Source: Macrostomum lignano
Lineage: Eukaryota
DNA: 64,000 nt
Direction of reading: 5' to 3'
NCBI GenBank assembly: GCA_002269645.1
Contig: NIVC01001686.1
Span: forward strand, 147,660-211,659
Shown: positions 42,664 through 58,855 of the stretch, in pieces
How positions within the stretch are numbered: the first letter of the stretch is position 1
Layout: the number at the start of each line of letters is the position of its first letter
The notes under the pieces: model-generated
Databases searched by the model: none
What the model was told of the DNA's origin: nothing
The model's input: only the letters and a program-made list of their open reading frames with translations
Translations under genes and position numbers: made by a program

Positions 42664-43630
42664 TGTTGTATCCCCCTTCCTCGCTGGCACGGCCGGGTTG
42701 GGCGACGGGTAGCGGTGTCGGGGTTCGGGTACTAGACTGCCCAGGGCTTACGAGCTCGATCGGCGACCCCGAGGCGTACGGACACTTCGGGGGGAGGTCA
42801 AGGTTGAGAAGTCGAGAGAGAGGGGAGGGGCGGCTGTGGGCGGGCGGCCACTCGACAGCCTGGTGAGTCAAGGAAGAGAGAGAGGGCTGCGGGCGGTCGG
42901 CCACTCGACAGCCTGGTGAGTCAAGGAAAAGAGAGAGGGCTGTGGGCGGGCGGCCACTCGACAGCCTGGTGAGTCAAGGAAGAGAGAGAGGGCTGCGGGC
43001 GGTCGGCCACTCGACAGCCTGGTGAGTCAAGGAAAAGAGAGAGTGAGAGAGAGAGAGATCAGGAGAGCGACCCCGAGGAACACAGGCAATTGTCTCGACA
43101 GCTTACCGGGCCGGGTCGATTATAGCACTCATACACGGGAAGGCCGATCGATTGCAATAAATTGAGTCTTCGCAGTAAGAGACCGTCTCTACGGTTGATC
43201 GCTGGTCACGTTCGTTTATTTATCGCGGTGGGCGCAAATGGGCGCAGGCACGGTGAGAAAAGGGGCGGGGTCTGAGCGTCGCCTTAAATAACGAGTAAAA
43301 AGGGGCAGGGGCGCAAACAAGGGGGGGGAGAAAGGGCTTAAACAATGGAGCTGATTGACAGCTGATTGGCTGCGGCGAGGGGAGGGTGGAAGCGCGCACG
43401 GCCAGGGAGAGGGAGAGAGAGCAGAGGCCCAGCCAATCAGCACGGCTAGCCAAAGGGCTAAACAGCCAAGGCGAGAGAGAGAGAGAAAGAGAGCAGAGGC
43501 TCAGCCAAAGGGCTCATAGCTCCAGACTGGCTTGAGCCGGGGGGGGGGGGGTAACAATAATCAACTACCAAAGTCAACAACTATCAAAGTGCACTTGCAC
43601 CAGGGGAGCACTGTGACACAGGTCACAACA
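42664..43630 (-). mobile_element. 3' LTR (~967 bp) of the Gypsy element
   Basis: TGTTGT...ACAACA termini. On the minus strand it is directly preceded by the PPT AGGGGGGAGGG (plus 43631-43641) and contains CCAAT-like boxes, TATTTAA (~43285) and AATAAA (~43215). Confidence 0.85.
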
Positions 43631-43719
43631 CCCTCCCCCCTAAAAAAAAGAAAACGACGCGCTTTGACTGAATGAAAATGAAAAAAAAATGTAATGAAAT
43701 GAAACTGAATGAAAGAGAC

Positions 43720-44140
43720 CAAGAGTGTCAGGCAGCGGCCGAGAGCGCAGGACAGGGGCCGAGGATGTCGGACAGGCCGAGAACACCGGGCACGGCCGAG
43801 AATGCCGGACTGTGGCCGAAAACGCCGGGCATGGCCGAGAATGCCGGACAGCGACCGAGAATGCCGGGCAGCGGCCGAGAACGCCTGGCATGGCCGAGAA
43901 TGCCGGACAGCGGCCGAGAATGCCGGGCAGCGACCGAGAACGCCGGGCATGGCCGAGAACGCCGGGCATGGCCGAGAGTGCCGGACAGCGGCCGAGAATG
44001 CCGGGCAGCGGCCGAGAATGCCGGGCAGCGACCGAGAACGCCGGGCATGGCCGAGAGTGCCGGACAGCGGCCGAGAATGCCGGGCAGCGGCCGAGAATGC
44101 CGGGCAACGACCGAGAGCGCCGGGCATGGCCGAGAGTGTT
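43720..44140. repeat. GC-rich ~20-bp tandem repeat in the Gypsy 3' non-coding region
   Basis: ggccgagaatgccgggcagc-type units. Confidence 0.9.
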
Positions 44141-44268
44141 CCCCGCCCTTCCTTCGGGGCCGCTCCCAGTGCCAAACAGAGGGATCACAACGACGATCAG
44201 AGGAGAGATGGGATGAAATGAAGGAGTGAAGGTCTCTTGCCCGCCCTGGCATCCTGCCCCAGAACCCC

Positions 44269-45150
44269 CTAGACCGCCACCTCCGCCGCCCGGCGCAACA
44301 ACCCCAACACGCGTCCTCCGTCGATTAGTTCAAACTGAGGGATCGCAACACTCATGACGAACCGAGTGCTTCGCTTGAAGGCAGGCCGCCGCCAGACACG
44401 CCGAGCATGACCCCGACACTTGGCGCTGATGTCACGGAGAATGAACTTGACAGTCTGAGCCAAAAGCTCGGCGATTTCGCGTCGATGATCCAGCCGCTCG
44501 CTGCCGCACAGTCCCACCATTTCAGTCAAAAGCCGGAACATCGCAGCTGGACTCCCCGACAACAAAGCGTGCCGAAGCTCCGACCGGATTCGAGCTCTTC
44601 GCTGCGTTGCCTCCCCGCTCCAGGTGTATTCCACCTCGGTACTCGGCTCGCTCCTCATCAGCCACGCTGGCGACTCCCGTTGGTCGATGACGAGCTCCGG
44701 TTCGTCTTCTGACATCGAAGTTTCGCCGTCGGATTCATTCAAGAGCTCTTCTTCCTCTGACTGCGTGATTTCACAGCAGCTCTGAGCAGTCTCCTCGCCG
44801 CCGCAACCACCACGCTCGCTTCCTTCCGACTCCCTGTCCTCGTCTGACTCTTCTGTTTCGTCTTCAATCGTTACGACAAACTCCTCCGGGACGCACATCC
44901 CATCCGGCGGGACAAAATACCGGGCGCACTCGAGCGGGTTGCTAACGGCATCCTGCCCGAACCGGTCGTACAGCGCTCGTCGAAACGGACACAGCAGGAC
45001 CGCACTCGCATGCTGCAGCCTCTGGAAATTCTCCGTTCCACCGGGTCCACACTTGTCGGGGTGCCGTCGCAGGCTCTCACGGCGGTACGCACGTCGCAGC
45101 TCCTCCTCCGTCGCGAAGGGGCTGACACCAAACTCGGCGTAGAGGTCCAT
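44269..45150 (-). CDS. J-domain (DnaJ/Hsp40-type) accessory protein, 293 aa, inside the Gypsy element
   Basis: MDLYAEFGVSPFATEEELRRAYRRESLRRHPDKCGPGGTENFQRLQHASAVLLCPFRRALYDRFG shows all four J-domain helices and the HPD motif, followed by an acidic linker and a helical C-terminal region. Intronless and sense to pol. Confidence 0.88.
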   Translation of the reverse strand: MDLYAEFGVSPFATEEELRRAYRRESLRRHPDKCGPGGTENFQRLQHASAVLLCPFRRALYDRFGQDAVSNPLECARYFVPPDGMCVPEEFVVTIEDETEESDEDRESEGSERGGCGGEETAQSCCEITQSEEEELLNESDGETSMSEDEPELVIDQRESPAWLMRSEPSTEVEYTWSGEATQRRARIRSELRHALLSGSPAAMFRLLTEMVGLCGSERLDHRREIAELLAQTVKFILRDISAKCRGHARRVWRRPAFKRSTRFVMSVAIPQFELIDGGRVLGLLRRAAEVAV

Positions 45151-45359
45151 GCCCGGAAAGCAGTGCCTGCAACAACCACGACTCACTTTTGAGAGCAGGG
45201 CAATGGTTCCTTCGAGCCTCTTTGGGGCGCCGATCCTTCATCCCTGATGGCAGGGTTGGGCAGGTGGGACCTCCACTGACGGGCCTTAAGAGGGGAAATA
45301 TATATTTTTGTTTGTGAAGCAGAGGCAATAACACGAGCCCAGTTTTCAATAACGCGGGT

Positions 45360-45571: not shown

Positions 45572-48500
45572 TTAATAATAAACGGGCGTTCCATAACGCT
45601 GCGGAACCCTTCGATCCCTCTGGGGTCGACCTTCGATGACTTCAACTGGCGCTTCCGGCTGCGGCTGCACTCCTGGCTGCTGCACATCCATTGGTTCTCC
45701 CTCCTCTCGAACCCGCCCGGAATGTCGCCACCATCGCTCCTCATCCTCATCGTCCGATTCCTGCGAGTCCTCCCTGACGGATTCCGTCTCTTGAGCAGGA
45801 CCTGGGTGGTACCTCCTTGGTGCAGGACGCCGAGGGCCACCGGTGCCGTCGACCGGGTACTTCCGGTACCGAGGCAGGAGGTTGTTAAAGTGCACCACCT
45901 TGATCGGCTTCCGTCGACCTTCCTGTCGAATCCTATAGCGCGTCTCCGACAGCTTCTCGAGAACTACGGCAGGTCCGGTCCAGGGTGAGTGGAGCTTCGC
46001 TTTGGCACCGGCCTTCAACACGGGGTTGTAGACGAACACCTCGTCGCCAGCCACGAATTCTCGACCCTTCACCTTCCGGTCGTACCAGTCTTTCTGCACT
46101 CGTTGATATGACGTTATTCTCTCACGCACCACCCGATGGGCTTCCACGAGCGTCTCCCGCAGGTTCTGGACTTCCTCGCAGTACGGTTCGATGTCCAGTG
46201 GGCGCGCCACTCCCAAGTCAACTGGCAGAGACATCTCGCGACCATGCAGAAGGAAGAAGGGTGAGTAGCCGGTGCCGCGGTGCACACTGGAGCGATACGC
46301 CATGAGCGCCGGGGCAACGAATTCGTCCCACCGCCTCTGATCCGGCTCCTTCACCAGGTGCGCCCGGATCACTGCAGTCAGCGTCTTATTGAAGCTTTCC
46401 ACTTGGCCGTTTCCAGAGGGGTGATAGGCGGTCGTACGCGTCTTTCGGATATTCAGACTTTCGCACAGCTGGCCGATCAATTGCGACTCGAAATTGGCTC
46501 CCTGATCCGAGTGGATTGTTCCTGGGGCTCCGTAGTGACAGACCCACTCCTCGAGCATTGCCCTTGCACAGGTGCTGGCCGTCTGATCTGGCACCGGTAC
46601 TGCCACTGGCCACTTACTGAACGCGTCCTGCATCGTCAGTATGTATTTGTTGCCTCGGACGCTGGTTGGCAGTGGTCCAATCAAATCCACCATCACTCTT
46701 TCAAACACATGGCTGCTGGGAATCGGCTCCAATGGGGCCTTCCGCCGCATCCCGGGCTTGCTCCGGTTACAGTCGTCACACCTTCGCACAAACTCCTCGA
46801 CCTCTCGCTTCAAGCCGGGTCTCCAGAATCGGTTCCTGACTTTCTCCAGAGTCTTTGCTACGCCGAAGTGTCCACCTCCTGGTCCAGAGTGCAGCGTCTG
46901 CAGAGCGTCGGGGATCAATTTCTTCGGGAGAACAGCCCGCGGTGGGTGACGTCCCAGATCCTTGATGACGAGGGTGTTGTCCACAATTTCCAGCCGAGGC
47001 TTTTGTGCCCAGATGGCTCGGGTCGTTGGTGACGCACCCCGAGGTGGCTCTTCGTTTGCTCGGCCGGCGTGCATCGACTGGTAAACTGGAGCGATGTCGT
47101 TGTCCACAGCTTGTGCTGCTGCCAGCTCATCTCGGCTGAGCAACCCGAGCAGCGTCGTTACCCTGACCCCGGGGAGGTCATCAGTCCGGCACGACGGGCA
47201 GTTATCCATTTCGGGATGTCGTCGCGTCGGCTTGCGTGACAGCGCGTCCGCATTCTGATGACGCGCCCCTGGCCGATGCTCCACTGCGAAGTCGAATGGC
47301 GCCAACCTCTCCATCCACCGAGCCAACTGGCCTTCCGGCTGCCTCATACTTCGGAGCCACTGCAGACTTGCGTGGTCGGTGCGCACCCGGAACCTCCGGC
47401 CAAGTAGATAGTACCGGAACCTCTCTGCGAATGTCACCAGCGCCAGGAGCTCGATTCGTGTCGTGCAATAGTTGAATTCGGCCCCTTGCAGACGCCGACT
47501 CCCGTACGCAATAACCCGCTCTGACCCGTCTTCTTGTACCTGCGACAAGACTGCTCCGAGACCCTGTCGGGTACTTCCATCGGTATCCAAGATGAACTCA
47601 CCAGCCGTGGGGTCGAAGTTCGGGTAGGCCATCACGCGGCAACCGGTCAATTCTTCTTTCAGCTTTTTGAAGGCCTCATCGTGTTCCTCTCTCCAACTGA
47701 ACGGCTTGTCTTTCTTTGTCAGATCAAAAAGTGGTGCAGCGACTATCGAGAATTCTGGTATGAAGTTTCGGTAGTAACCAGCCAGACCCAGGAACGACTG
47801 AAGGTCTTTTGCATTTCTTGGAATGCTCCAGTCACGGACTTCCTTGATCTTCTCCGGGTCGACATCGATTCCGTCCTTTGACACGACGTGGCCAAGGAAT
47901 TTGACCTCATCGGCCAGGAATCTGCACTTAGATGGCTTTAGCCTCAAGTTGGCTGCGCGCAGGCGCTGGAATACCGCCTCGAGATTCGTTAGATGCTCGC
48001 TGACAGTTCGGGACCAAATGATGATATCGTCGATGTAGACGAGCGCCATTTTCCACAGAAGGTCGTGTAGTACCATATTCATCAACCTTGTGAATGTCGC
48101 CGGCGCATTGGTCAATCCGAAGGGCAGCACCTTGAACGCGAATTGCCCCCGATGCGGAATGACAAAAGCAGTCTTTTCTTGATCCTCCCTTTTGACCTTA
48201 ACTTGCCAATAGCCGGAGCAAAGGTCGAGCGTCGAAAATACAGCCGCACCTCCGAGCGCTTCAAGTGCGTCATCGACACGCGGGATTGCTATGGCGTCCT
48301 TGACAGTTCGTTGATTCAACTCTCTGTAGTCGACACACAGTCGCAGTTCCCCATTCTTCTTACGGACACAGACCACTGGCGAACTCCACGGCGATTGGGT
48401 CGGTTCAATCATCTTCGTTGCCAAAAGCTCGTCGATTTGTCGGTCGACTTCGCCGCGCCAATGTGGCGGTAGCCGTCGCGGAGGCTGTTTTACGGCTGTT

Positions 48501-49390
48501 CCGGTGGTCTCAATTTCATGCTGCACGATGTCCGTCGTCCCGAGGCGCGCTGTACTCTCTGCGAAAACATCTGCGTATCGATTCACCAATCTTAGGAAAC
48601 TCGCTTTGTCTGCCCCCGTGAGCTGCTTGGAGCCGTGCTGGTTCAGTGCCGCCTCTGGGTCCCATGGATCGCAGCTGGGTCGTAAAACCGACGCTTGCTC
48701 TTCGATGCTGGCTACCAGAACCTCTTGAGCCGGATCTGATGGTCGAAACCAGCCGATGACAGCTCCCTTCCGCAGCCGCAGCTCGGAGTCCGTGACATTC
48801 GCGAAGTGAACTGGTAGGGTGTTGCCCTGCTGGATGAGGCAGACGCTCCTGGCTAGCATTGGTCTCTCATCGCTCTTCAGTTTTTCGTCTGGCTCGGCGA
48901 CGCCGAGCACTCCGGAATTCTGTGTCGCTGTTCTCCGAATCCTGGCTGAGACGGTCCGTTCGTGATTGGCCGGAATGATCAAGTTTTCGTTCAGGTACAA
49001 CCGGCAGACGACTGGTTTGTGCTTGGTCTCTCGGATTGGCACACGTGAACCGTTCACGCGGAAAACTCCTCCGGCGAAATCGATTTGGCACCGGTGGCGG
49101 CGTAAGAAGTCGGTGCCTAGCAACAGTTCGTAGCCGACCCCTTGGACCACCGCAATTGGCGTCTGTAAAGTTTCTGATCCGAACTGTAGGGGAAGCGACG
49201 CGCATCCTAACACATTCATGGGAGTTCCGTTCGCTGAGATCAGGTGGGTTTCCGAAGGGCTGAGTTCAACTCGAACCGACTTGCTCAACTGCCGCCAGGT
49301 CCTCTCGTTCACCAGCGACATGACCGAGCCCGAATCCAACAGACACGGCAACTCAATCTCGCCAATTTTTACCGACACGTAGATTGACAC
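45572..49390 (-). CDS. pol: Gypsy Pol polyprotein (PR-RT-RNaseH-IN), intact, translated via a -1 frameshift from gag
   Basis: PR LLDSGS; RT LDLCSGYWQ, LPFGLTNAPATF, YIDD; RH ILDTDGS, ELLA, TDH; IN HSGPGGGH..CDDC, VDLIGP, HSDQG, NGQVESFN; C-terminal GPY/F-like WTGP. Confidence 0.97.
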   Translation of the reverse strand: MSIYVSVKIGEIELPCLLDSGSVMSLVNERTWRQLSKSVRVELSPSETHLISANGTPMNVLGCASLPLQFGSETLQTPIAVVQGVGYELLLGTDFLRRHRCQIDFAGGVFRVNGSRVPIRETKHKPVVCRLYLNENLIIPANHERTVSARIRRTATQNSGVLGVAEPDEKLKSDERPMLARSVCLIQQGNTLPVHFANVTDSELRLRKGAVIGWFRPSDPAQEVLVASIEEQASVLRPSCDPWDPEAALNQHGSKQLTGADKASFLRLVNRYADVFAESTARLGTTDIVQHEIETTGTAVKQPPRRLPPHWRGEVDRQIDELLATKMIEPTQSPWSSPVVCVRKKNGELRLCVDYRELNQRTVKDAIAIPRVDDALEALGGAAVFSTLDLCSGYWQVKVKREDQEKTAFVIPHRGQFAFKVLPFGLTNAPATFTRLMNMVLHDLLWKMALVYIDDIIIWSRTVSEHLTNLEAVFQRLRAANLRLKPSKCRFLADEVKFLGHVVSKDGIDVDPEKIKEVRDWSIPRNAKDLQSFLGLAGYYRNFIPEFSIVAAPLFDLTKKDKPFSWREEHDEAFKKLKEELTGCRVMAYPNFDPTAGEFILDTDGSTRQGLGAVLSQVQEDGSERVIAYGSRRLQGAEFNYCTTRIELLALVTFAERFRYYLLGRRFRVRTDHASLQWLRSMRQPEGQLARWMERLAPFDFAVEHRPGARHQNADALSRKPTRRHPEMDNCPSCRTDDLPGVRVTTLLGLLSRDELAAAQAVDNDIAPVYQSMHAGRANEEPPRGASPTTRAIWAQKPRLEIVDNTLVIKDLGRHPPRAVLPKKLIPDALQTLHSGPGGGHFGVAKTLEKVRNRFWRPGLKREVEEFVRRCDDCNRSKPGMRRKAPLEPIPSSHVFERVMVDLIGPLPTSVRGNKYILTMQDAFSKWPVAVPVPDQTASTCARAMLEEWVCHYGAPGTIHSDQGANFESQLIGQLCESLNIRKTRTTAYHPSGNGQVESFNKTLTAVIRAHLVKEPDQRRWDEFVAPALMAYRSSVHRGTGYSPFFLLHGREMSLPVDLGVARPLDIEPYCEEVQNLRETLVEAHRVVRERITSYQRVQKDWYDRKVKGREFVAGDEVFVYNPVLKAGAKAKLHSPWTGPAVVLEKLSETRYRIRQEGRRKPIKVVHFNNLLPRYRKYPVDGTGGPRRPAPRRYHPGPAQETESVREDSQESDDEDEERWWRHSGRVREEGEPMDVQQPGVQPQPEAPVEVIEGRPQRDRRVPQRYGTPVYY

Positions 49391-49489
49391 GGGATTAAAA
49401 GCTGTTGCAGGTTGATCTCTATCTCTTGAGCAGTCCGCCGGACATCCTGCTGCACGTCGCTCCGGGGCTGCATCTTCGTCTCGGGTTGG

Positions 49490-49549
49490 GGCCTCTACTG
49501 TCTCGGCGGAACTCCCTCGCCCCTGCGGAAGTTCCCCTTGCCGTTTCCC
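49490..49549 (-). other. -1 ribosomal frameshift signal (G GGA AAC + stem/pseudoknot)
   Basis: Heptamer at plus 49543-49549 in X XXY YYZ phase; the -1 frame stays open into pol; GGAACTTCC/GGGAGTTCC stem begins 7 nt downstream. Confidence 0.75.
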
Positions 49550-49988
49550 TGTTGCTGACGGGTTGGGCAGTTAGTCGCGATGTGCCCTGGCTTGTTGCAG
49601 AAGAAGCAGCGAATTCCTCCCGTTCGTCGAGGCTTCTGATGGTCGCCTTCGTCGGAGTCGGTCGGTCGAGCTGCGGCGCTGCTATGCGGTTCCGCTCTCA
49701 GCGACTCGAGCTGAACCACTTTGCCTTGAAGCTGCCTCACCAGTTTCTTCAACTCCTCGAGCTCTTTGTCCTTTTCTTGGGAGTAGGCTCCATCCTCCCG
49801 AGGCACAGATTCCGCCGCGCCGCTCACCACGAAGACTCCTCGGTGGCCGCTGCCAGTTGCTCCAGCCGATCTCGGTCCCTTCGCCGCCTTGGACGCCGCC
49901 TCGAGCTGCCTCACCGCGCGTTGTGCTGCCACCAGACCTTCGGGCTGCTGCAGGTAGAGCTTCTCTCGCTGGAGGTCGGAGAGTCTCA
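49495..49988 (-). CDS. gag: Gypsy Gag, C-terminal portion (5' part displaced by the transposon insertion)
   Basis: CFFCNKPGHIATNC zinc knuckle preceded by a coiled coil; sequence character changes abruptly at 49989. Confidence 0.85.
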
Positions 49989-50649
49989 CCCGATTGAAAA
50001 TCCGTCGGCACTCCGAGTGCCGATCGGCACTGCCTGTCGGCAGTCAGGGTCGATTTGACTGCCGATCGGCACTCAGTATCGGCACTGAGTGCCGACCGGG
50101 TAGTGCCGACTGTCGGCACTACCCGTCGGTACTGCCCGTCGGCACTGCCCAGTAGTGCCGACATGTCGGCACTACCCGTCGGCACTGCTCGTCGGCACTG
50201 CCCAGTAGTGCCGACATGTCGGCACTACCCGTCGGTACTGCCCGTCGGCACTGCCCAGTAGTGCCGACATGTCGGCACTACCCGTCGGCACTGCCCGTCG
50301 GCACTGCCCAGTAGTGCCGACATGTCGGCACTACCCGTCGGCACTGCTCGTCGGCACTACCCGTCGGCACTGTCGATATGTCTTTATCTGTCCCCATGTT
50401 CTCTTAATTTTCTATGCGTCTAATTTCATGCTATTTTGGCAAGTGTCCCACACAAAATAAATCAGGAACTGCATTGGCTAAAGTATCCAACAAAGCCCAC
50501 GCTTCAATATGCGACGTTTCGATTCATAGCGACCCTTCATTGATTTTGTTGCAAACGTTATACGGCATTGGCGGATAGAAGTCGTACAGAGATGTAGCAG
50601 ATATTGCCATGAATTCAGGTTGTGAGCAAAGGCTACTACCGACATGACT

Positions 50650-50840
50650 TTGTAACAGTTTGTACGACTTTGTGGTAGTTCTGTTTGTAGGATTTTGTAG
50701 CCCCTTGTAGGACTTTGTGTGACTCTTTGTAGGACTTTGTGAGACTCTTTGTAGGACTTTGTGAGACTCTTTGTAGGACTTTGTGAGACTTTGTAGGACT
50801 TTGTGTGACTCTTCGTAGGACTTTGTGAGACTTTGACAGT
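50650..50840. repeat. ~22-bp tandem repeat upstream of the transposase
   Basis: Unit ttgtaggactttgtgagactct. Confidence 0.85.
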
Positions 50841-51121
50841 AAGACTTATGCAATACAGCTTTTACATCATACACTTGGGTCCTGAACGGGACTGGGACTG
50901 TCTCAGTAGAAAGGGTGTTCTAATGGCATGTATAGATCTAGAGCATAGGAGCATGGGGCATAGAGCATGTATTGATGATACGCATGGCTTTAGACAACTT
51001 GAAAGACAATCCAACAACATGGATATTTTTTAAAGCTGTAGTTTCGCAATACCATCTGACATGTCTCCCATGCGCATATCCTCTAGCGCATTTCAGCCAG
51101 CTGCCAAAAGTCTTCGTGGCA

Positions 51122-54100
51122 ATGGACTTTGCCAAACATATCAAAGCGCGCGACCGTAAGAGAAAGCTGGAGGCAGTCTGTCGGTCCGATCGGCGTGCAG
51201 CTGCAGCTGCAAGTAAGTGCATGCGTGTGCTGCAGTTTGGCCAAGCCGCAGCATCTAGTTCGATGCAAGGTGCAGCTAACCATGACGAGGACGATGCCGG
51301 TGGTGTTGCCTCATCTGACGGTCCTGCTGAGCTTTTCAGCTCTAGCTCTGACTGCAGTTCCGACCGCGGCTCCGAACGTGGGTCTGACCGCAGCTCCGAT
51401 AGAGCCCCTGGCTGCGGATCCGACTGCGGCTCCGAACGTGGGTCTGACCGCAGCTCCGATGGAGCCTCTGGCCGCGGATCCGACTGCGGCTCCGAACGTG
51501 GGTCTGACCGCAGCTCCGATAGAGCCCCTGGCCGCGGATCCGACTGCGGCTCCGAACGTGGGTCTGACCGCAGCTCCGATAGAGCCCCTGGCCGCGGATC
51601 CGACTGCGGCTCCGAACGTGGGTCTGACCGCAGCTCCGATGGAGCCTCTGGCCGCGGATCCGACTGCGGCTCCGAACGTGGGTCTGACCGCAGCTCCGAT
51701 GGAGCCTCTGGCCGCGGATCCGACTGCGACTCCGAACGTGGGTCTGACCGCAGCTCCGATGGAGCCTCTGGCCGCGGATCCGACCGCAGTCCTGACCCCA
51801 GCGATGCGACGTCTGATGATGACGGTGATGACGTAAGGCTTGCATTGTACTGTTGAAGGCTGGCACTCGTGCGTATACGTGGCTGATGTGATCCTGCCTG
51901 CAAATATCAGTTAGCACTCAGCAAACTTAAGCACGCAATGTTCATCGGCTGCCTAGAACCAATCTAGTTATGATTCCCTCCTTCCTCCCCTTCCTACCCT
52001 TTCTCTTCCATCCGCCAGGGTGCGCTATGGGACGACGTCATCGAGGAATCCGCTGACAGTGTCAACGGTGATGGCGGTGCTGGCGACGGGGCTGGCGGTG
52101 CTGGCGACGGGGCTGGCGGTGCTAGCGGTGCTGTCGACGAAGGGGCAGCCCATGGCGGCGACGACGGCGTCGTTCACATCGCGCCAGGGTTTCTGCAACC
52201 GGTGCATCGCACAATGCCGCACCTGTCATACGCCACTTTGGCAGTGTACGGAGAGCTCCTAGCCGAGAAGCACAAGTTGTCGCGAAACGCCACGGCGGAC
52301 CTGCTGCTTTACACGAAGCTCGCGCTTCCCCCAGACGCCGTGTTTGCCGACAACCCGTACCGCCTGCGACGGTTTCTGGAGTCCTGCAACTCCCTGCGCT
52401 CCGAACGACTTCTTTTTTGTCCTAGGTGCAGCCGGCCCCTGGTGGAGGAGGCCCTTCCACTGACCTGCGAACCCTGCGGAAAGCAGTTTTCGTCAGTGGA
52501 CCGCGTCGCCAAGGTCTGGCGGATGGATGTGCGAGCCCAGCTACGGCAGCTCATTGAGCGCTGCGGCCTGTTGTCGGTCGTCTCCTTCCCCGCGGACGTC
52601 ACGCGGCGGCCGGGTGGTCTGAGCTTGTGGCAAAGCACGGCATACTCGGCCTTTACGCACCTCATTGACAAGGCCGCTCGCTCAGATCTGACGGTCACGG
52701 TCAACATCGATGCATTTTCCGTGTTCAGCCGGGCGGTGTACAACATCTGCCCCGTGTACCTTACCGTGAATGAGGTCCCCGACCACATGCGAGCGCGCTT
52801 CACGGTGGTCTGCGCTCTGTGGGCCTGCAGGAACAAGGTGAGCGTGGACGCCTTCCTGCCGTGGCTGGTGGCCCAGCTGAACAGCCTTCGCATCGAGGGT
52901 GTTATGTTCCGCACAGGTGGTGGACGAGACGGCACGCGTGGCGGCTGCATCCGCTTCCATCCGCTCCTCTTCGTGCTTGACGCGCCTCAGAGGGTTGAGG
53001 TGACTGGGTTACAGCACTGCTCAGCAGTGTACGGCTGCGATCACTGTTACACCGTGACTCTCCATGATGCCGACCGCGGAGGAAATGCGCGCATTTTCCC
53101 ATGCGAGCTTTCGGCCGACGCGCTGCAAGCAGCATCCGACGCCGGTTGCACACGGCCGCGGTACCGGGCATTGCAGGACACCATCCTCCTGGCGACCACG
53201 ATTCCGGCGGGCGCAGGCCACAACCTCGGCGTCGTCAGGCTGTCTCCTCTTCATCGGCTGCAGGGCTTCGACTTCATCACCTCCTGCCCGCCCTGCTACC
53301 TCCATCAGTGCCTCGTCGGCGTTGTCGGTTGGCTGCTGCGGCAGCACTTTCTGCCCGTCGGCAAGCGACCTGACAAGATGGCCGAGAACCCGGACTTGTC
53401 CCGCCATGTGGCTGAAGTGGACGCCAAGGCGGCCAGTATTCGAGTGCCTGCGTCGCACCAGCGGGGCCCTCGCACCCTGGCGGACCTCGGCCACTTCCGC
53501 GGGCACGAATTTGAGTGCTGGCTGTTGGTGTACGGCCCCATGGTTCTCGGCGACACGCTGGGACCGTTCTATTACAATCAACTGCTGCTCCTGTCCTCTT
53601 CCATCTTCTGGCTGTCTCTGGAGAACTGCCCGCTGACGGAAGTTACTCGTGCAGCGAAGACCCTGCGAGTATTCTACGCCAGCCTGAAGGATGGGTTTTC
53701 GCCGGCCGCCATGACCTACAATGCCCACCAGGTCTGTGAGCACCTCGTTCCCGCAGCCTTTCTCTTCGGACCCGTGTGGCGCACCTCCGCCGGCCTGTTC
53801 GAGTCTCTGCACTACGGCCTCAAAACGCGCGTCAAGGGCGCCAGGTTCGTCGGTGATCAGGTACGCAGAGAGACCCTTTTCTCTAATTAGAAAAATATAG
53901 TATAATGGCATCTACGCCTCTATATTCTACTCACTAGTAGTCAGTACGTATGCAGGATGCCCACTCTTGTATCGCACTAGAAACCCACCCCCTGGGTTAT
54001 CGTGGTATATATAATTACAAAGGTTCCCCCTTGATACCATGTTCCCCTCCGAGGGCTTGCGTTGCTGCATCAGACCGTTACCTAACTTGCAACGGGCGCC

Positions 54101-54686
54101 TCCCACCCTTCATTTCACTCAGGTGCACTCTGCCATCAGACGGCAATTCAGCAGGCGTGCCGTCATGCACCAGTTGGGCCTGGCCTCGCCCTTTGCGGCC
54201 CGTGGATTCCTTCAGGGTGTCCAAGAGACCATGGCCGACGGGACCAGGGTGTACACCAAGCTACATGACGACGAGTTCCGCTGGGCTCTGTTGACCAACG
54301 GATGGCGCATTGAGCGCTACTTGCCCGCGCTACAGCACCAGCGGTCCCTGTGCTGCTTCGTCGCCTTCGCCGCCAGTGACGACGGTGTCCAACTGGCTTT
54401 CGGTCGCGTCGACGCCATCCGCAGGTCCCCCACCCGCGGGACTGCAATCCTGATGGTGCGTCGCCTTCGTACCGTCTGCCTTCTGGACCCGGAATACTAC
54501 ATCTCGGGCGTCGCACAGAACGACGGCTGCCGACTGAGGCACATTCAGCGCGTCGTCGACAACCCATTCGGCGACATCGGCGGCATGCACTTCTGTCTCC
54601 CCGTGGTGGACGTGCTTGGCACATGCTGTGTAACTGACACCCACATAGCTTTCCTCCCGCACGTGCAAACCTCCTTCGCCGCCTAG
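51122..54686 (+). CDS. CMC/EnSpm-type DDE transposase, ~1038 aa; exons 51122-51832, 52019-53860, 54123-54686
   Basis: GT-AG phase-0 junctions join all three exons in frame. Motifs: FCPRC..CEPC zinc finger, TVNIDAFSVFS (D1), FVLDAPQR (D2), GCDHC, PCYLH (C/D-x2-H), RTLADLGHFRGHEFECWLL, and GLFESLHYGLK (E). Confidence 0.88.
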
Positions 54687-55161
54687 TGGGCGGGCGGCAA
54701 GTGCCGAAGATTTGCCGAACAAGTGTGTCAGACAACTGCAATCCATGTCTAGTGTCTCCGACTGTCCGCAGCCCGACTTCTGTCCATCCCGTATTCTCAC
54801 ATTTACTCCGACGAGGACAAGTGTGTAGATCAGTGTGTACACCTCCGCTGCTGCTGTCCCTGATCGGCACTGCTTCTATTCTGTGCATATATTTAGCCAT
54901 GTTTGTCACTTTTCTCGATCTGTATTTCCAATGGCCACCTTCAAGGACGAGTATATATATATGACAACGTAATATGCACGAAGATGTGTAACTTTCATCA
55001 GCTGTCTATCGTACCTCTTTAATCGTACCTCTTTATCGTACTTTATCGTACCTCTTAGTTTACGCCTTTTGTACGTCTGCATATTATATTTACTCAGACA
55101 ATGGCAAGTATCTACCAGTGATCCGTAGCTACATGTCTATAGATATATCTTTCCCCTATAT

Positions 55162-55430
55162 CCCGCTGGGAAATATGACGGATTCCTGGTGCGATTCCTT
55201 GTGGAATCGTCGCGGATTCCATTGAATTTTTTCTGCCTAAAAGGAATCTGCTGTGCAGGGCAGATTCTTGGGTCTGAATCTGCCCTGCAGGGCGGATTCC
55301 GTAGCGTTGAACTGCGTGGAACGCGCACACTGCGCGAGCTGAAGAAGTTCCGTGGGCACGAATCCGAAATATGGCTGATTGCCTATGCGCCCATCGTTCT
55401 GCAGGACTGCTTTCATGACTTGTGTATGAA
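55162..55430 (+). pseudogene. Terminal fragment of a second, related CMC element fused to a transposase remnant
   Basis: CCCGCTGGGAAATA start, GGAATC/GATTCC repeats and a 14-bp hairpin (55254-55289), then RGTRTLRELKKFRGHESEIWLIAYAPIVLQD, which is paralogous to the main transposase segment RGPRTLADLGHFRGHEFECWLLVYGPMVLGD. Confidence 0.65.
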
Positions 55431-55773: not shown

Positions 55774-56708
55774 AAGAGATAAAGAGCAGTCAGGGGTTGC
55801 GGGTAGGAGTTGGAGCTCCTCCAAAGCAGGGGTAGCCCGGGGAGCCGTCCCGCCAGACCCCAGGCCACCACAACTGCCTTCCGGACGACTACTGTCATCA
55901 CCTGCTTCTGCTGTCGGCCTCTCTGCTGTCTCTTCTTAATGCTTTTGTTTGACTTGTTGCATTGTGACATCTGGAAGTACGGGGAAGGCCATGAAAGAGA
56001 CAAGGGAAAAGGAAAAGTCATTAACTGTTCATAATCTGTCCACTGTAGGCCTGTGTGCAGGGGCTTAGCTTTGGTTTTTGTCTGCTTTAGGCCTGCTGGC
56101 TAGATTGCATTTCGAAGGAAAGAATATTGTTAGCATATAACAACGTTGTATATAGTGTGGCATGAATACTGCAGCTAGTATAAGAATGTTATTATTGTGT
56201 ATATAGCGATGTGCTGTATGTAGTGCATAAGTGCCTATACTATTACGTAATATTACTGTCTGTAAACTTTTGTTTGGGTTACTTATACTATTCTTGTACT
56301 GTCTGTTAAATACACCGCTCCCAACCGCTGTTCACTCTACTTCACCTGCTGCACGTCTCGTTATTTTAAGAATTGAAACGACTTCACGGAACTTCCTATT
56401 CCTTGTTTCTCTTGCACGGTATACGGCAGCTGTCCATGTTTTGCATGTCTTCGAATATAGTGTAAAACATATTGTGCAGAAACAACAACAACTACTACTA
56501 CTACAAATTAGTACAGGAATTGCTCCATTTTCTCGTACGACTTCTCCCTAAAAGCAACAACAACAAAAGCTGAACTGCACATGAACCTACCGTACAACTT
56601 ACGGTACTGCATTAATCCATTACTGCAGTACTGCATTAATACAGTAATCAAGTTTATTTGAACCCCGTCCCTCGCATGTGGATTACAGCTCCGCCGAACT
56701 GCCGAGCG

Positions 56709-58855
56709 ATGCAGTCATCGACCGGCCGTGCCCCACCTACCATTGACGTGCTGCCGTCGGAGTTGCTCATGCAGGTGTTGCAGCACCTCACGGTACCCAC
56801 TCGGCTGGTGTGCGCACAAGTATGCCGCCGTTGGGCAGACGTCGTCCGCGCACCAGTGTTGTGGGAGAGACTGCCTGTCACCGCCACTGCACTGGACGAC
56901 TACAGCACAGCGGCACGGCTCATGACCTTGGCGACGGCGGCGAAAGAGTTAGATTTGGGCACCGTGTTCGAGCCGCCTAGCGCGATCGCCATCGACCGCG
57001 CTGCCACGCTCCTTCTGCGCTGCGGCGAGCTGCGTACGCTCCGCCTGCTGGACATGGGCCAGTACACCGGCGGCCCAAACCTCCTCACGGTGGCTGGTCG
57101 CAGTTGCCTACAACTGCGGGAGCTATCATTGGCAGAATGCCCAGGCATCTTCAACCCGGAGGCGCTGGCCAGTCTGAGCGACGGTTGTCCCAGACTGGAG
57201 AAGCTGGAGCTGTTGACAGACGGCGAGGAAATCTTTGGTGGCGACGTCGCACAGTGCGCTGCACCCTTTTGCCGACTGCTGGGCCGCATACAGGTAATAC
57301 GGCATGTATAATTGCTCAAACAGTAAGGTCATATGACCCATGTCACATACGTTCTCATGTCACATGGCACAGTCCTTTTAGTCGAGATGGCTGTCTATGT
57401 ATTAATATTATTAACTTCACCCCCCCCTTCTCCGGCATTCCTACAGGTGTTGCATGTCCGCGCAGACATGCTTGCCACTTCAGCTGGTCCCGTAGCAGCG
57501 GCCATCGCTACAGGCTGGTGCCGCTTCACCCGGCTGCGTGAGGTCACCCTAGACCCGCCGGCATCCCCGTCTCCGGCCAGGGCTACACGAGGCATGTTGT
57601 TACAATCCATTTAAAAATAGTCACTTCGTAGTGGGCTTAGTAATTACGTATAGGCCTTCTCCGGGAATTGTGTGCAACCATTAATTTCTTTCTAAATAAT
57701 GAATGCGTTTTAACGACGAAATGCACCCTTCCTTATCTCTCAGTGCTGCTCGACATCATCAGCGGGCAGGGAGACCAGCTACAGCGCTTGACCGTGCACA
57801 GCCAGGTCGTCACGGATGCCATCGCCGGTCAAATTGCTGCACGAGTCGGCCTCAAGGGCGCCAACCTGCGTCACCTGCATCTGGACGCAGGCGACAAGCT
57901 GACCGTGTGGGGCCTGCGGCAACTGCTGAAGTGCTGGCCTGGGCTCCAAAGCCTAAGCCTCGTCCACTGCCTCAGTCTGGGCGCGGAGGGCTTCCGGTTG
58001 GCCTGCCAGGAGCTGCCCGACTTGACGCGGCTGAGATACCAGATAGCTGCCAGTCCGGACGCGCCAGCCGGGTCTGCCGACGTTTTCCGTGGCACTCGGC
58101 TACCTCCGTCGCTACGAGTGCTGCAGCTTTACGTCACGCCCACCGACGAAGCTTGCGGGATCAGGGTCGGTGAGCCTGCATTCGCGACCGCTCTCGGCGG
58201 ATGTCGTGGTGAGTGTGGTGCATATTACATTTGACGCACAAATGTGCATGCACGTGACGTTAGTCTTAGTCTTTATGAGGCATGCATGTTCATCCTGTAT
58301 GGTGCGCACGCCTCCGCTCTAGACCTACACACTGCACACTGGACGCTACTATGTACACTTCTCCATCCGTACGCAGGCCTGACTCACGTGACTATCTCGT
58401 GGCCCGCCTGCGACGACAGTCTCGTGGCCTGTCTGTTACTCACGCTGCCACAGCTGCAGTGCCTGCACTTGTTGGACTGTCGGCTGGTGACGGGCAAAGC
58501 CTGGGAGACTCTCCCTCCTGCAGGTATTCGTCCAGCCGACCACGCCTCTGCTGCAATGCTCGAACTGACGCTCGCAAACTGCCCCAGCCTCGACGATGGC
58601 AGTCTATCGCGTCTGTGCACCTGTTCCGTCGCGACCAGCCTTAACTGGCTGTGGCTCGATGGCACCGCCGTTACGCCGGACTGTCTGACGCTGCTGGCCA
58701 GGGAATGCCCGAGCCTGTTGGAAGTTTACATCCGTTGGACGGAACTGCCCACGAGTAACATTGAAATGTGGCACCACGCCGCTGCCGTCGTGAACAAAAA
58801 TCGTGACATTCATCTGCGCATTGATTTGCCGGAGCTAGCCAATATGGGGCGGTGA
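56709..58855 (+). CDS. F-box/leucine-rich-repeat (FBXL-like) protein, ~557 aa; exons 56709-57293, 57447-57591, 57744-58208, 58377-58855
   Basis: F-box IDVLPSELLMQVLQHLTVPTRLVCAQVCRRWADVV..LW is followed by cysteine-containing-type LRRs (LRELSLAEC, LEKLEL, LQSLSLVHC, LQCLHLLDCRLVTG, LELTLANCPSLDDGSL, LNWLWLDGTAVT). Intron phases are 0,1,1; intron 2 needs a GC donor. Confidence 0.85.

Follow-up and report, generated by a model that had tools for sequence, protein, structure and literature searches.

A J-domain protein gene in the env position of Gypsy retrotransposons from Macrostomum lignano

The window analysed here, a stretch of 64,000 nucleotides of Macrostomum lignano DNA (contig NIVC01001686.1, positions 147,660 to 211,659), contains on its minus strand a Ty3/Gypsy long terminal repeat (LTR) retrotransposon with a third open reading frame (ORF), ORF3, in the env position. 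ORF3 encodes a J-domain protein. We found it to be a stable accessory gene within a Gypsy lineage rather than a one-off capture, and it is almost certainly a protein-coding gene under selection. Accessory genes in the env slot are known from other Gypsy elements; the J-domain cargo is unreported in the literature that we searched. As to function, we favour, with a probability of about 0.4, a protein that would act in the nucleus and in trans, bringing Hsp70 to silenced chromatin with an anti-silencing outcome.

Results

ORF3 encodes a J-domain and a helical domain of no known family

A sequence-only reading of the window had described an intact, intronless sense ORF of 293 aa between pol and the polypurine tract and 3' LTR, with a complete J-domain including its HPD motif, an acidic linker and a helical C-terminal region of no known family. 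Coordinates and frame agreed with this description: ORF3 reads without introns from an ATG to a TAG. The pol stop lies 421 nt ahead of it, and the polypurine tract follows at a distance of about 630 nt. The J-domain was confirmed as well. ORF3 residues 2-62 matched Pfam DnaJ (PF00226) with an E-value of 1.2e-12 (48.2 bits, for a cut-off of 27.8), and the HPD motif (H30-P31-D32) lies between helices II and III. The predicted model had a pLDDT of 90-97 across residues 1-90, which comprise the J-domain and a post-J segment, and Foldseek aligned the domain with isolated solved J-domains at a probability of 1.00 (rmsd 0.9-2.0 Å over 61-70 columns). The model also contained the linker (residues ~100-175, disordered at 109-161 and 164-171, where pLDDT was below 50) and the helical domain (residues 179-291). 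PF00226 was the sole Pfam match above cut-off, and the G/F region, the zinc finger and DnaJ_C were absent, as in class C J-proteins. It is probable that the proteins of the HPD-bearing families described below act as Hsp70 co-chaperones. Word-index protein searches with ORF3 returned generic DnaJ proteins and one M. lignano entry; the ESM Atlas, queried with the whole protein, returned generic DnaJ clusters only.

The possibility that ORF3 is itself an env gene was rejected, as it has no signal or membrane segment and no match to an env family in Pfam. The maximum 19-residue hydropathy in 14 ORF3 proteins was 0.94-1.56, none of them reaching 1.6.

ORF3 is shared by seven families of elements

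In a genome search in which 134 of 233 candidates were scored, ORF3 gave at least 154 matches. ORF3 sequence adjoined all 22 integrase loci of family A, to which the window copy belongs. Twelve of these had the ATG, the HPD and an unbroken frame, and the HPD codons were kept in 18; the remaining loci comprised one without ATG, one reading HPY, one with a deletion over the HPD, four that were frameshifted and three that were partial. Single-base indels in family-A copies also riddle pol and may be assembly errors. The gene was present between pol and the 3' LTR in six further families, B to G, which are 57-63% identical to A in reverse transcriptase and RNase H (RT-RH) and 24-36% identical in ORF3, and older sister forms (A2, B2, C2 and F2) carry it too. 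The co-occurrence of ORF3 with its pol family between LTRs, which the sequence-only reading had proposed to check, was observed in families A to G. The same reading had counted members without the ORF as evidence of a one-off capture: there was none among the family-A loci, and all or most of ORF3 is missing from three other forms (A3, H and a deletion form of D), to which we return in the Discussion.

Two D loci (L074 and L185, on contigs C525 and C2475) have nearly identical RT of subfamily D1, yet the 3' region on C2475 is nearer to D2, a pattern that suggests recombination between D subfamilies. At another locus (L084, contig C506), a deletion joins family-E RNase H in frame to ORF3, and the product is filed as a 993-aa hypothetical protein.

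When 150 of 336 candidates in the genome were scored for J-domain matches, about 65 of the best 150 were assigned to element families by coordinates shared with ORF3 matches, the context being checked for only part of them. Macrostomum lignano is the organism given for database proteins identical or near-identical to ORF3 from families C and E, and some element-borne ORF3 are filed as host 'J domain-containing protein'. Five near-identical copies of a 1449-aa frame are also present in the genome (L212 and L213 on contigs C575 and C3488; also C1901 and C1744); its J-domain, at the N-terminus, is the only part of it related to ORF3.

A profile of the C-terminal domain, run against 1.84 billion proteins, gave ten matches. 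Two were M. lignano entries, six were unnamed proteins from sequencing-run or metagenome contigs, and two were dropped (P0009, which is made of helical repeats and matched none of the families, and P0011, with an E-value of 6e-4). The outside set, made up of the six proteins and one cluster member, was 34-76% identical to the nearest family described here, and the HPD was kept in all five outside proteins that include the J-domain. One of the set (P0005) had no match above 46% in this genome, and the outside relatives likely come from other genomes. A metagenome scan for DNA around another of them (P0008) found nothing, and a word-index protein search with family G gave no match.

ORF3 is under purifying selection and descends with pol

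We estimated dN/dS by the method of Nei and Gojobori in 12 ORF3 comparisons, several of which have synonymous sites near saturation. The ratio was 0.08-0.35 in 11 comparisons, the twelfth being saturated, and the bootstrap intervals computed for 10 had upper bounds of 0.18-0.58. For the window ORF3 against sister A2 copies it was 0.20-0.27. By region, we obtained 0.10-0.31 for the J-domain in HPD-bearing pairs, 0.05-0.26 for the C-terminal domain and 0.17-0.51 for the linker, while the degenerate J-domain of family G gave 0.15 and 0.46. The pol control gave 0.06-0.42 in the five measurable comparisons out of six. Purifying selection, which the sequence-only reading had proposed to look for on the HPD, is found in the whole of ORF3 as in its J-domain.

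These values largely refute the idea that a host DnaJ fragment was captured once and has been carried along without function. Such a passenger would account for the repeated losses of the gene (A3, H and the D deletion form), for the loss of the HPD in G and for the many broken frames. It would not be expected to keep open frames at 24-36% identity, a shared domain for which no host counterpart was found and conserved splice signals, and we regard it as very improbable.

In a FastTree phylogeny of about 80 columns, 15 element J-domains grouped in a single clade that excluded the 14 host J-domains (support 0.944). Families B and C, and families D and G, paired in this tree as they did in a quick version of the RT tree. 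The single clade and the common pairing indicate one old capture, followed by descent with pol. No host donor stood out, five host J-domains being 29-51% identical over at least 45 residues.

A shared C-terminal domain, and additional modules that may point to chromatin

The post-J segment and the C-terminal domain are common to all seven families. For the latter, there was no Foldseek match at E ≤ 0.001 in the PDB or among viral structures, and the best VIA Z values (8.6 and 8.3, for B12-binding cap-type bundles) were within the helical-bundle background. The ESM Atlas gave no usable match for this domain, and no host counterpart was found. A 17-residue stretch with 5-9 Lys or Arg was present in all 14 proteins checked, within the C-terminal-domain loop in 8 of them.

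A motif resembling SUMO-interacting motifs of the phospho-SIM type (SIM-like motif: a hydrophobic run of three or four residues, then a Ser/acidic run, in a disordered linker) occurs in 13 of 18 linkers, for 1.7 expected by shuffling, and in 7 of 11 more independent lineages, for 1.1 expected. It is clear in families B, C and D, whose linkers may bind SUMO. The B1 and D2 motifs closely resemble the proven SIM peptides of IE2 and PML (PMC5646861), and SIM binding by IE2 is described in 10.1101/655282. Complex prediction with host SUMO and a family-B1 linker peptide gave a median of 0.32 for a mark of 0.34 (controls, 0.00-0.02) and was used neither way. An intronless SUMO gene has seven identical matches on four contigs (L188-L194).

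In family F (L061), a chromodomain (PF00385, E = 1.4e-12) is found in the linker, between the J-domain and the C-terminal domain; one is also inserted in F2 (L093) and in the outside protein P0010. Its nearest solved relatives are Swi6 (E = 1.7e-10) and HP1 (E = 1.1e-9), and its dN/dS was 0.28. In families D and G (L057, L073 and L128), ORF3 has an added TatD-like domain (for D, a PF01026 match with E = 1.1e-7) without most of the metal ligands: in the comparison of G with 2gzx, the Glu of GE was kept, the His and the Asp of ETD were not. It is likely a dead nuclease. The dN/dS of this domain was 0.14 (D1 versus D2) and 0.41-0.56 within G.

Chromodomain, SIM-like motif and basic loop would also suit a protein that helps integration, joining the pre-integration complex for nuclear entry or for the choice of chromatin, with Hsp70 uncoating the particle or stripping integrase off after strand transfer. 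The pol of the element has no chromodomain of its own, and where Gypsy integrases carry one, it is reported to direct insertion to heterochromatin (PMC9289625). Against this, 4-bp duplications and near-identical LTRs are also found in sub-lineages that lack the gene, and we consider a role in integration rather unlikely.

ORF3 is predicted to be expressed from a spliced subgenomic mRNA

The sequences around ORF3 predict an env-like spliced subgenomic mRNA, with the donor in the 5' LTR and the acceptor at the start codon. The AG of the predicted acceptor ends 16 nt from the start codon in family A and 7 nt from it in G; in B, C, E and F the interval is 0-1 nt. As background, an AG precedes 69 of the 312 ATGs found in pol regions. 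In A, B, C, E and F there is a GTAAG donor at a distance of 156-228 nt downstream of the TATA box, for a chance expectation of 0.02-0.09 in each 100-nt window, and the donor of G is GTGAG. Family A has an upstream ATG (43132 in the window) in a phase that matches ORF3 across the predicted junction. In family D, the predicted AG falls inside the first codon, without an ATG there; with the final A of the D donors, a start codon would be formed at the splice junction. Trans-splicing of ORF3 at the same acceptor is possible, this process affecting 30% of host genes (PMC8629364). Four contig sets, taken as RNA by guess only, covered 30 of 30 bins of one full copy and contained no joint of the LTR donor with the ORF3 acceptor; as contigs drop rare forms, the missing joint counts as no evidence.

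In family A, each of the two LTRs contains a copy of the host spliced-leader (SL) exon, 42-43 nt long and situated about 27 nt downstream of the AATAAA; the other families examined have none. The copy matches the published spliced leader of the species and the arrayed SL RNA genes (L162-L168, with exon, GTAAG donor and stem-loops). Most copies are without the last two bases and hence without the terminal AUG, while the one on contig C3678 keeps them. The 32-nt SL core had 86 exact genome matches, many of them in LTRs. Template switching from a trans-spliced RNA possibly gave rise to the copy, which could mimic the host leader. Three candidate joints of SL copy and element were rejected, two having 21-22 matching letters and loose ends in unrelated sequence and the third no preceding AG. 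SL copies in LTRs will confound the mapping of SL reads.

The window copy and its surroundings

The features of the window copy are listed in Table 1. Its pol domains (protease, PR; RT; RNase H, RH; integrase, IN) are in the Ty3/Gypsy order PR-RT-RH-IN, and a GGGAAAC heptamer in the gag/pol overlap (49549-49543) is a likely -1 frameshift site, by its sequence. The copy is 5'-truncated at 49991, so that the window lacks its 5' LTR, its primer site and roughly 160 codons from the start of gag; the window ends at the contig end. As it has only the 3' LTR, this copy is likely not transcribed from its own promoter. Other copies showed the Ty3/Gypsy hallmarks, namely paired TG..CA LTRs, a primer site, a polypurine tract and a target duplication. 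The latter was 4 bp long in 9 of the 10 elements checked, and paired LTRs were present in 8 of the 10 family-A copies fetched, being 98.7-99.9% identical in six of them. Primer site and 4-bp duplication would be compatible with the Gmr1/Osvaldo cluster (in the grouping of PMC12801592). At least three distinct primer-binding sequences follow the 5' LTRs within the one clade (in A/B/C, D/E/G/H and F), which indicates that the tRNA primer was switched while ORF3 stayed.

Table 1. Position of ORF3, its parts and the other features of the Gypsy copy in the window
Feature	Position	Strand	Basis
ORF3 (J-domain, post-J segment, acidic linker, helical C-terminal domain)	44269..45150	-	ORF call, Pfam, model
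J-domain, residues 2-62, four helices; HPD at 45063-45055	44965..45147	-	Pfam PF00226, pLDDT, Foldseek
SIM-like motif V92-V93-T94-I95 and acidic run; weaker and shifted compared with B, C, D	44842..44877	-	pattern match
Five-helix C-terminal domain; basic loop, residues 244-260 (8 K/R in 17)	44278..44616	-	model, pLDDT 91, pTM 0.83
gag, 3' half with CCHC knuckle, overlapping the pol frame	49494..49991	-	sequence; cut off at 49991
pol, open frame of 1332 aa (1249 from first ATG, 49321); PR, RT, RNase H, integrase; no chromodomain; stop ends at 45572	45572..49570	-	Pfam
Predicted acceptor (3' splice site); its AG ends 16 nt ahead of the ORF3 ATG	45167..45180	-	prediction
Tandem repeats (19-21 nt, imperfect) in the 3' untranslated region	43740..44165	-	sequence
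Polypurine tract	43631..43641	-	sequence
3' LTR, 967 bp, TG..CA; TATA-like box near 43291, AATAAA near 43221	42664..43630	-	sequence
Copy of host SL exon in LTR	43153..43194	-	41/42 nt match SL RNA genes; terminal two bases and SL intron absent
Predicted 5' splice site GTAAGC, 184 nt after TATA box; ORF3 donor if in 5' LTR	43101..43106	-	prediction

The Gypsy copy is interrupted by the sequence at 49992-55200, which has 40-odd-nt subterminal repeats at 50000-50370. The plus-strand ORFs of this region (50975-51856, 52214-53890 and 54039-54686) had no Pfam match, and the second of them, of 558 aa, may encode a transposase of the CACTA/EnSpm type. Further on (about 56700-57500, minus strand) lies a frame that by eye resembles a gene with an F-box and leucine-rich repeats.

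Discussion

Under the reading that we favour, a spliced subgenomic mRNA using the 5' LTR donor would supply the ORF3 protein, the basic loop of the C-terminal domain would take it to the nucleus and the SIM-like motif would aim it at SUMO-marked complexes. In family F, which is without this motif, the HP1-type chromodomain would aim the protein at methyl-H3K9. The C-terminal domain would then grip the client and the J-domain would trigger ATP hydrolysis by Hsp70, the repressor complex being taken apart. The sequence-only reading had proposed other targets, namely assembly of Gag or of virus-like particles, folding of RT, and PIWI loading. We found no direct support for any of them; chromodomain, SIM-like motif and basic loop point rather to chromatin, and nuclear chromatin is on balance the probable target. 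A bolder version, according to which a modular, SUMO- and heterochromatin-targeted Hsp70 'disassemblase' adaptor with a new client-binding domain replaced env and strips silencing complexes from the element's own loci, with the gene-less relatives as cheaters, would amount to a transposon that evolved a strategy resembling that of T antigen; it appears doubtful to us.

Several observations weigh against an anti-silencing function that depends on Hsp70. In family G the HPD is replaced, yet the 558-aa frame was open in 10 of the 11 loci examined, with a dN/dS of 0.29-0.34. Family H, the sister of G, had no trace of ORF3 in the four loci examined (on contigs C1405, C23, C952 and C272), A3 (two loci) is a deletion form of A2 without ORF3, and the D deletion form keeps only part of the TatD-like domain. 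The sequence-only reading had named decay of the HPD or of the frame as contrary evidence; the HPD was indeed lost in G, whereas the G frame stayed open and the HPD is kept in six of the seven families. Because G, without HPD and SIM-like motif, keeps a selected open frame, it may be the C-terminal domain that forms the conserved core, in a role independent of Hsp70, and the predicted fold of this domain offers no functional clue. The SIM pattern was written after the sequences had been seen, and one of its 13 matches, a strand of the chromodomain, is spurious; the motif is absent from E, F (outside the chromodomain), G, P0010 and P0008, and weak and shifted in the window protein. The F chromodomain has two of the three cage residues (F2 has all three). 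Splice donors are also found in the gene-less H and A3, which weakens the splicing argument, and there was no canonical heat-shock element in the LTRs examined. Finally, the same chromatin modules fit integration targeting equally well.

The forms that lost the HPD or the gene have moved. LTRs of family G were 99.9% identical on contig C254, and the LTR stretches of A3, H and the D deletion form were 98.9-100% identical on C23, C1405, C3200 and C2475. Contig C10 carries a decayed relative of H. ORF3 was also missing from K (two loci, decayed, nested in F) and from the outgroup I (two loci), as well as from a family-C copy on C33 that ends just after pol, with no 3' LTR match within 10 kb. Since A3, H and the D deletion form moved without the gene, recruitment of Hsp70 in cis is not needed for every lineage. 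This bears on the view that ORF3 is a cytoplasmic chaperone of the element itself, recruiting Hsp70 to fold Gag and Pol or to assemble or remodel the particle or ribonucleoprotein. The J fold, the HPD in six of seven families and the retention of the gene with gag-pol since the root of the clade are all compatible with that view, and binding of nucleic acid is conceivable for the TatD-like domain present in D and G. It leaves unexplained, however, the selected HP1-type chromodomain and the SIM-like motif, as well as the recent insertions of G (no HPD), H and A3 (no gene), and we judge it unlikely.

Ancestral, selected and droppable, ORF3 has the pattern of a trans-acting accessory factor. If it acts in trans, sub-lineages can drop the HPD or the gene and ride on relatives or do without. 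A droppable gene of this type is also what one would expect of a counter-defence factor directed at small RNAs. PIWI loading depends on chaperones, and ORF3 could act as a decoy that diverts Hsp70/Hsp90 from the loading of PIWI or Argonaute, or its C-terminal domain could bind a defence factor. Our searches revealed no sequence or structure link to piRNA factors, and the chromatin modules are not accounted for unless the target is nuclear piRNA-guided silencing, in which case the decoy merges with the chromatin-directed, anti-silencing function that we favour. As a separate explanation we hold it to be improbable.

Several known systems offer parallels. Like an env-bearing errantivirus, the elements have a third sense ORF after pol, a predicted spliced subgenomic mRNA, a 4-bp duplication and, in family D, a start codon that splicing would form at the junction; unlike env, ORF3 encodes a soluble J-domain protein and not a membrane fusion glycoprotein. 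An orchid Gypsy element with an ORF for an AlkB m6A demethylase (PMC9289625) similarly has a host-derived domain fixed as an extra ORF and read as counter-defence, but this is a recent capture of an enzyme, whereas ORF3 is an old capture of a chaperone adaptor that later gained and lost modules. Burro, a planarian Gypsy element (PMC6431247), shows that flatworm elements can carry captured host-regulatory domains (SUMO-like, BIR, BCL2, MATH); it is 25-30 kb long with the domains mostly in the polyprotein, in contrast to the 8-9 kb and the single 3' gene of the present elements. The accessible passages of that review do not mention DnaJ, TatD or chaperone. Chromoviruses are likewise Gypsy elements with a chromodomain. 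Only family F shares this feature, its chromodomain being inside ORF3 instead of at the integrase C-terminus, and the window pol has none.

Coupling of a J-domain to a reader of silent chromatin is known from plants, with SILENZIO and with SDJ/DNAJ1-2, which go with MBD5/6 and SUVH1/3 (PMC11694752). Plant J-proteins work with chromatin readers in both activation and silencing (PMC11694752). They are host genes and separate chains, whereas family F fuses reader and J-domain within an element. Among viruses, there is a resemblance to the polyomavirus T antigens, which have an N-terminal J-domain with HPD followed by an acidic linker with a short linear motif. The J-domain of T antigen aims Hsp70 at Rb-E2F and takes the complex apart. 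ORF3 differs in having no helicase or origin-binding domain, and no homology was found outside the J-domain; LxCxE was absent from 13 of the 14 ORF3 proteins checked and present only in the outside protein P0008.

We found no literature report of a J-domain ORF in an LTR retrotransposon, in a search that left Repbase entries and most subscription journals outside. The main text of a survey of M. lignano LTR elements (PMC12801592), in its accessible passages and not covering supplements 2-5 or an earlier classification paper, does not mention the terms ORF, Hsp40, J domain, chaperone, splicing or TatD.

Element-borne J-domains, in the proportion found here, are a warning for genome annotators. 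The natural variants provide built-in controls, with the HPD lost in G, a chromodomain in F and the gene lost in H and A3, and the biochemistry is testable: HPD-dependent stimulation of the Hsp70 ATPase, SUMO binding and methyl-histone binding. In the likely host, transgenesis and heat-stress transcriptomes exist (PMC12801592). Counter-defence proteins of recognisable biochemistry are known from few animal retrotransposons. If ORF3 acts as we favour, it would bear on how transposons escape SUMO- and H3K9me-based silencing, and it adds an uncharacterised five-helix domain to the proteins that such elements encode.
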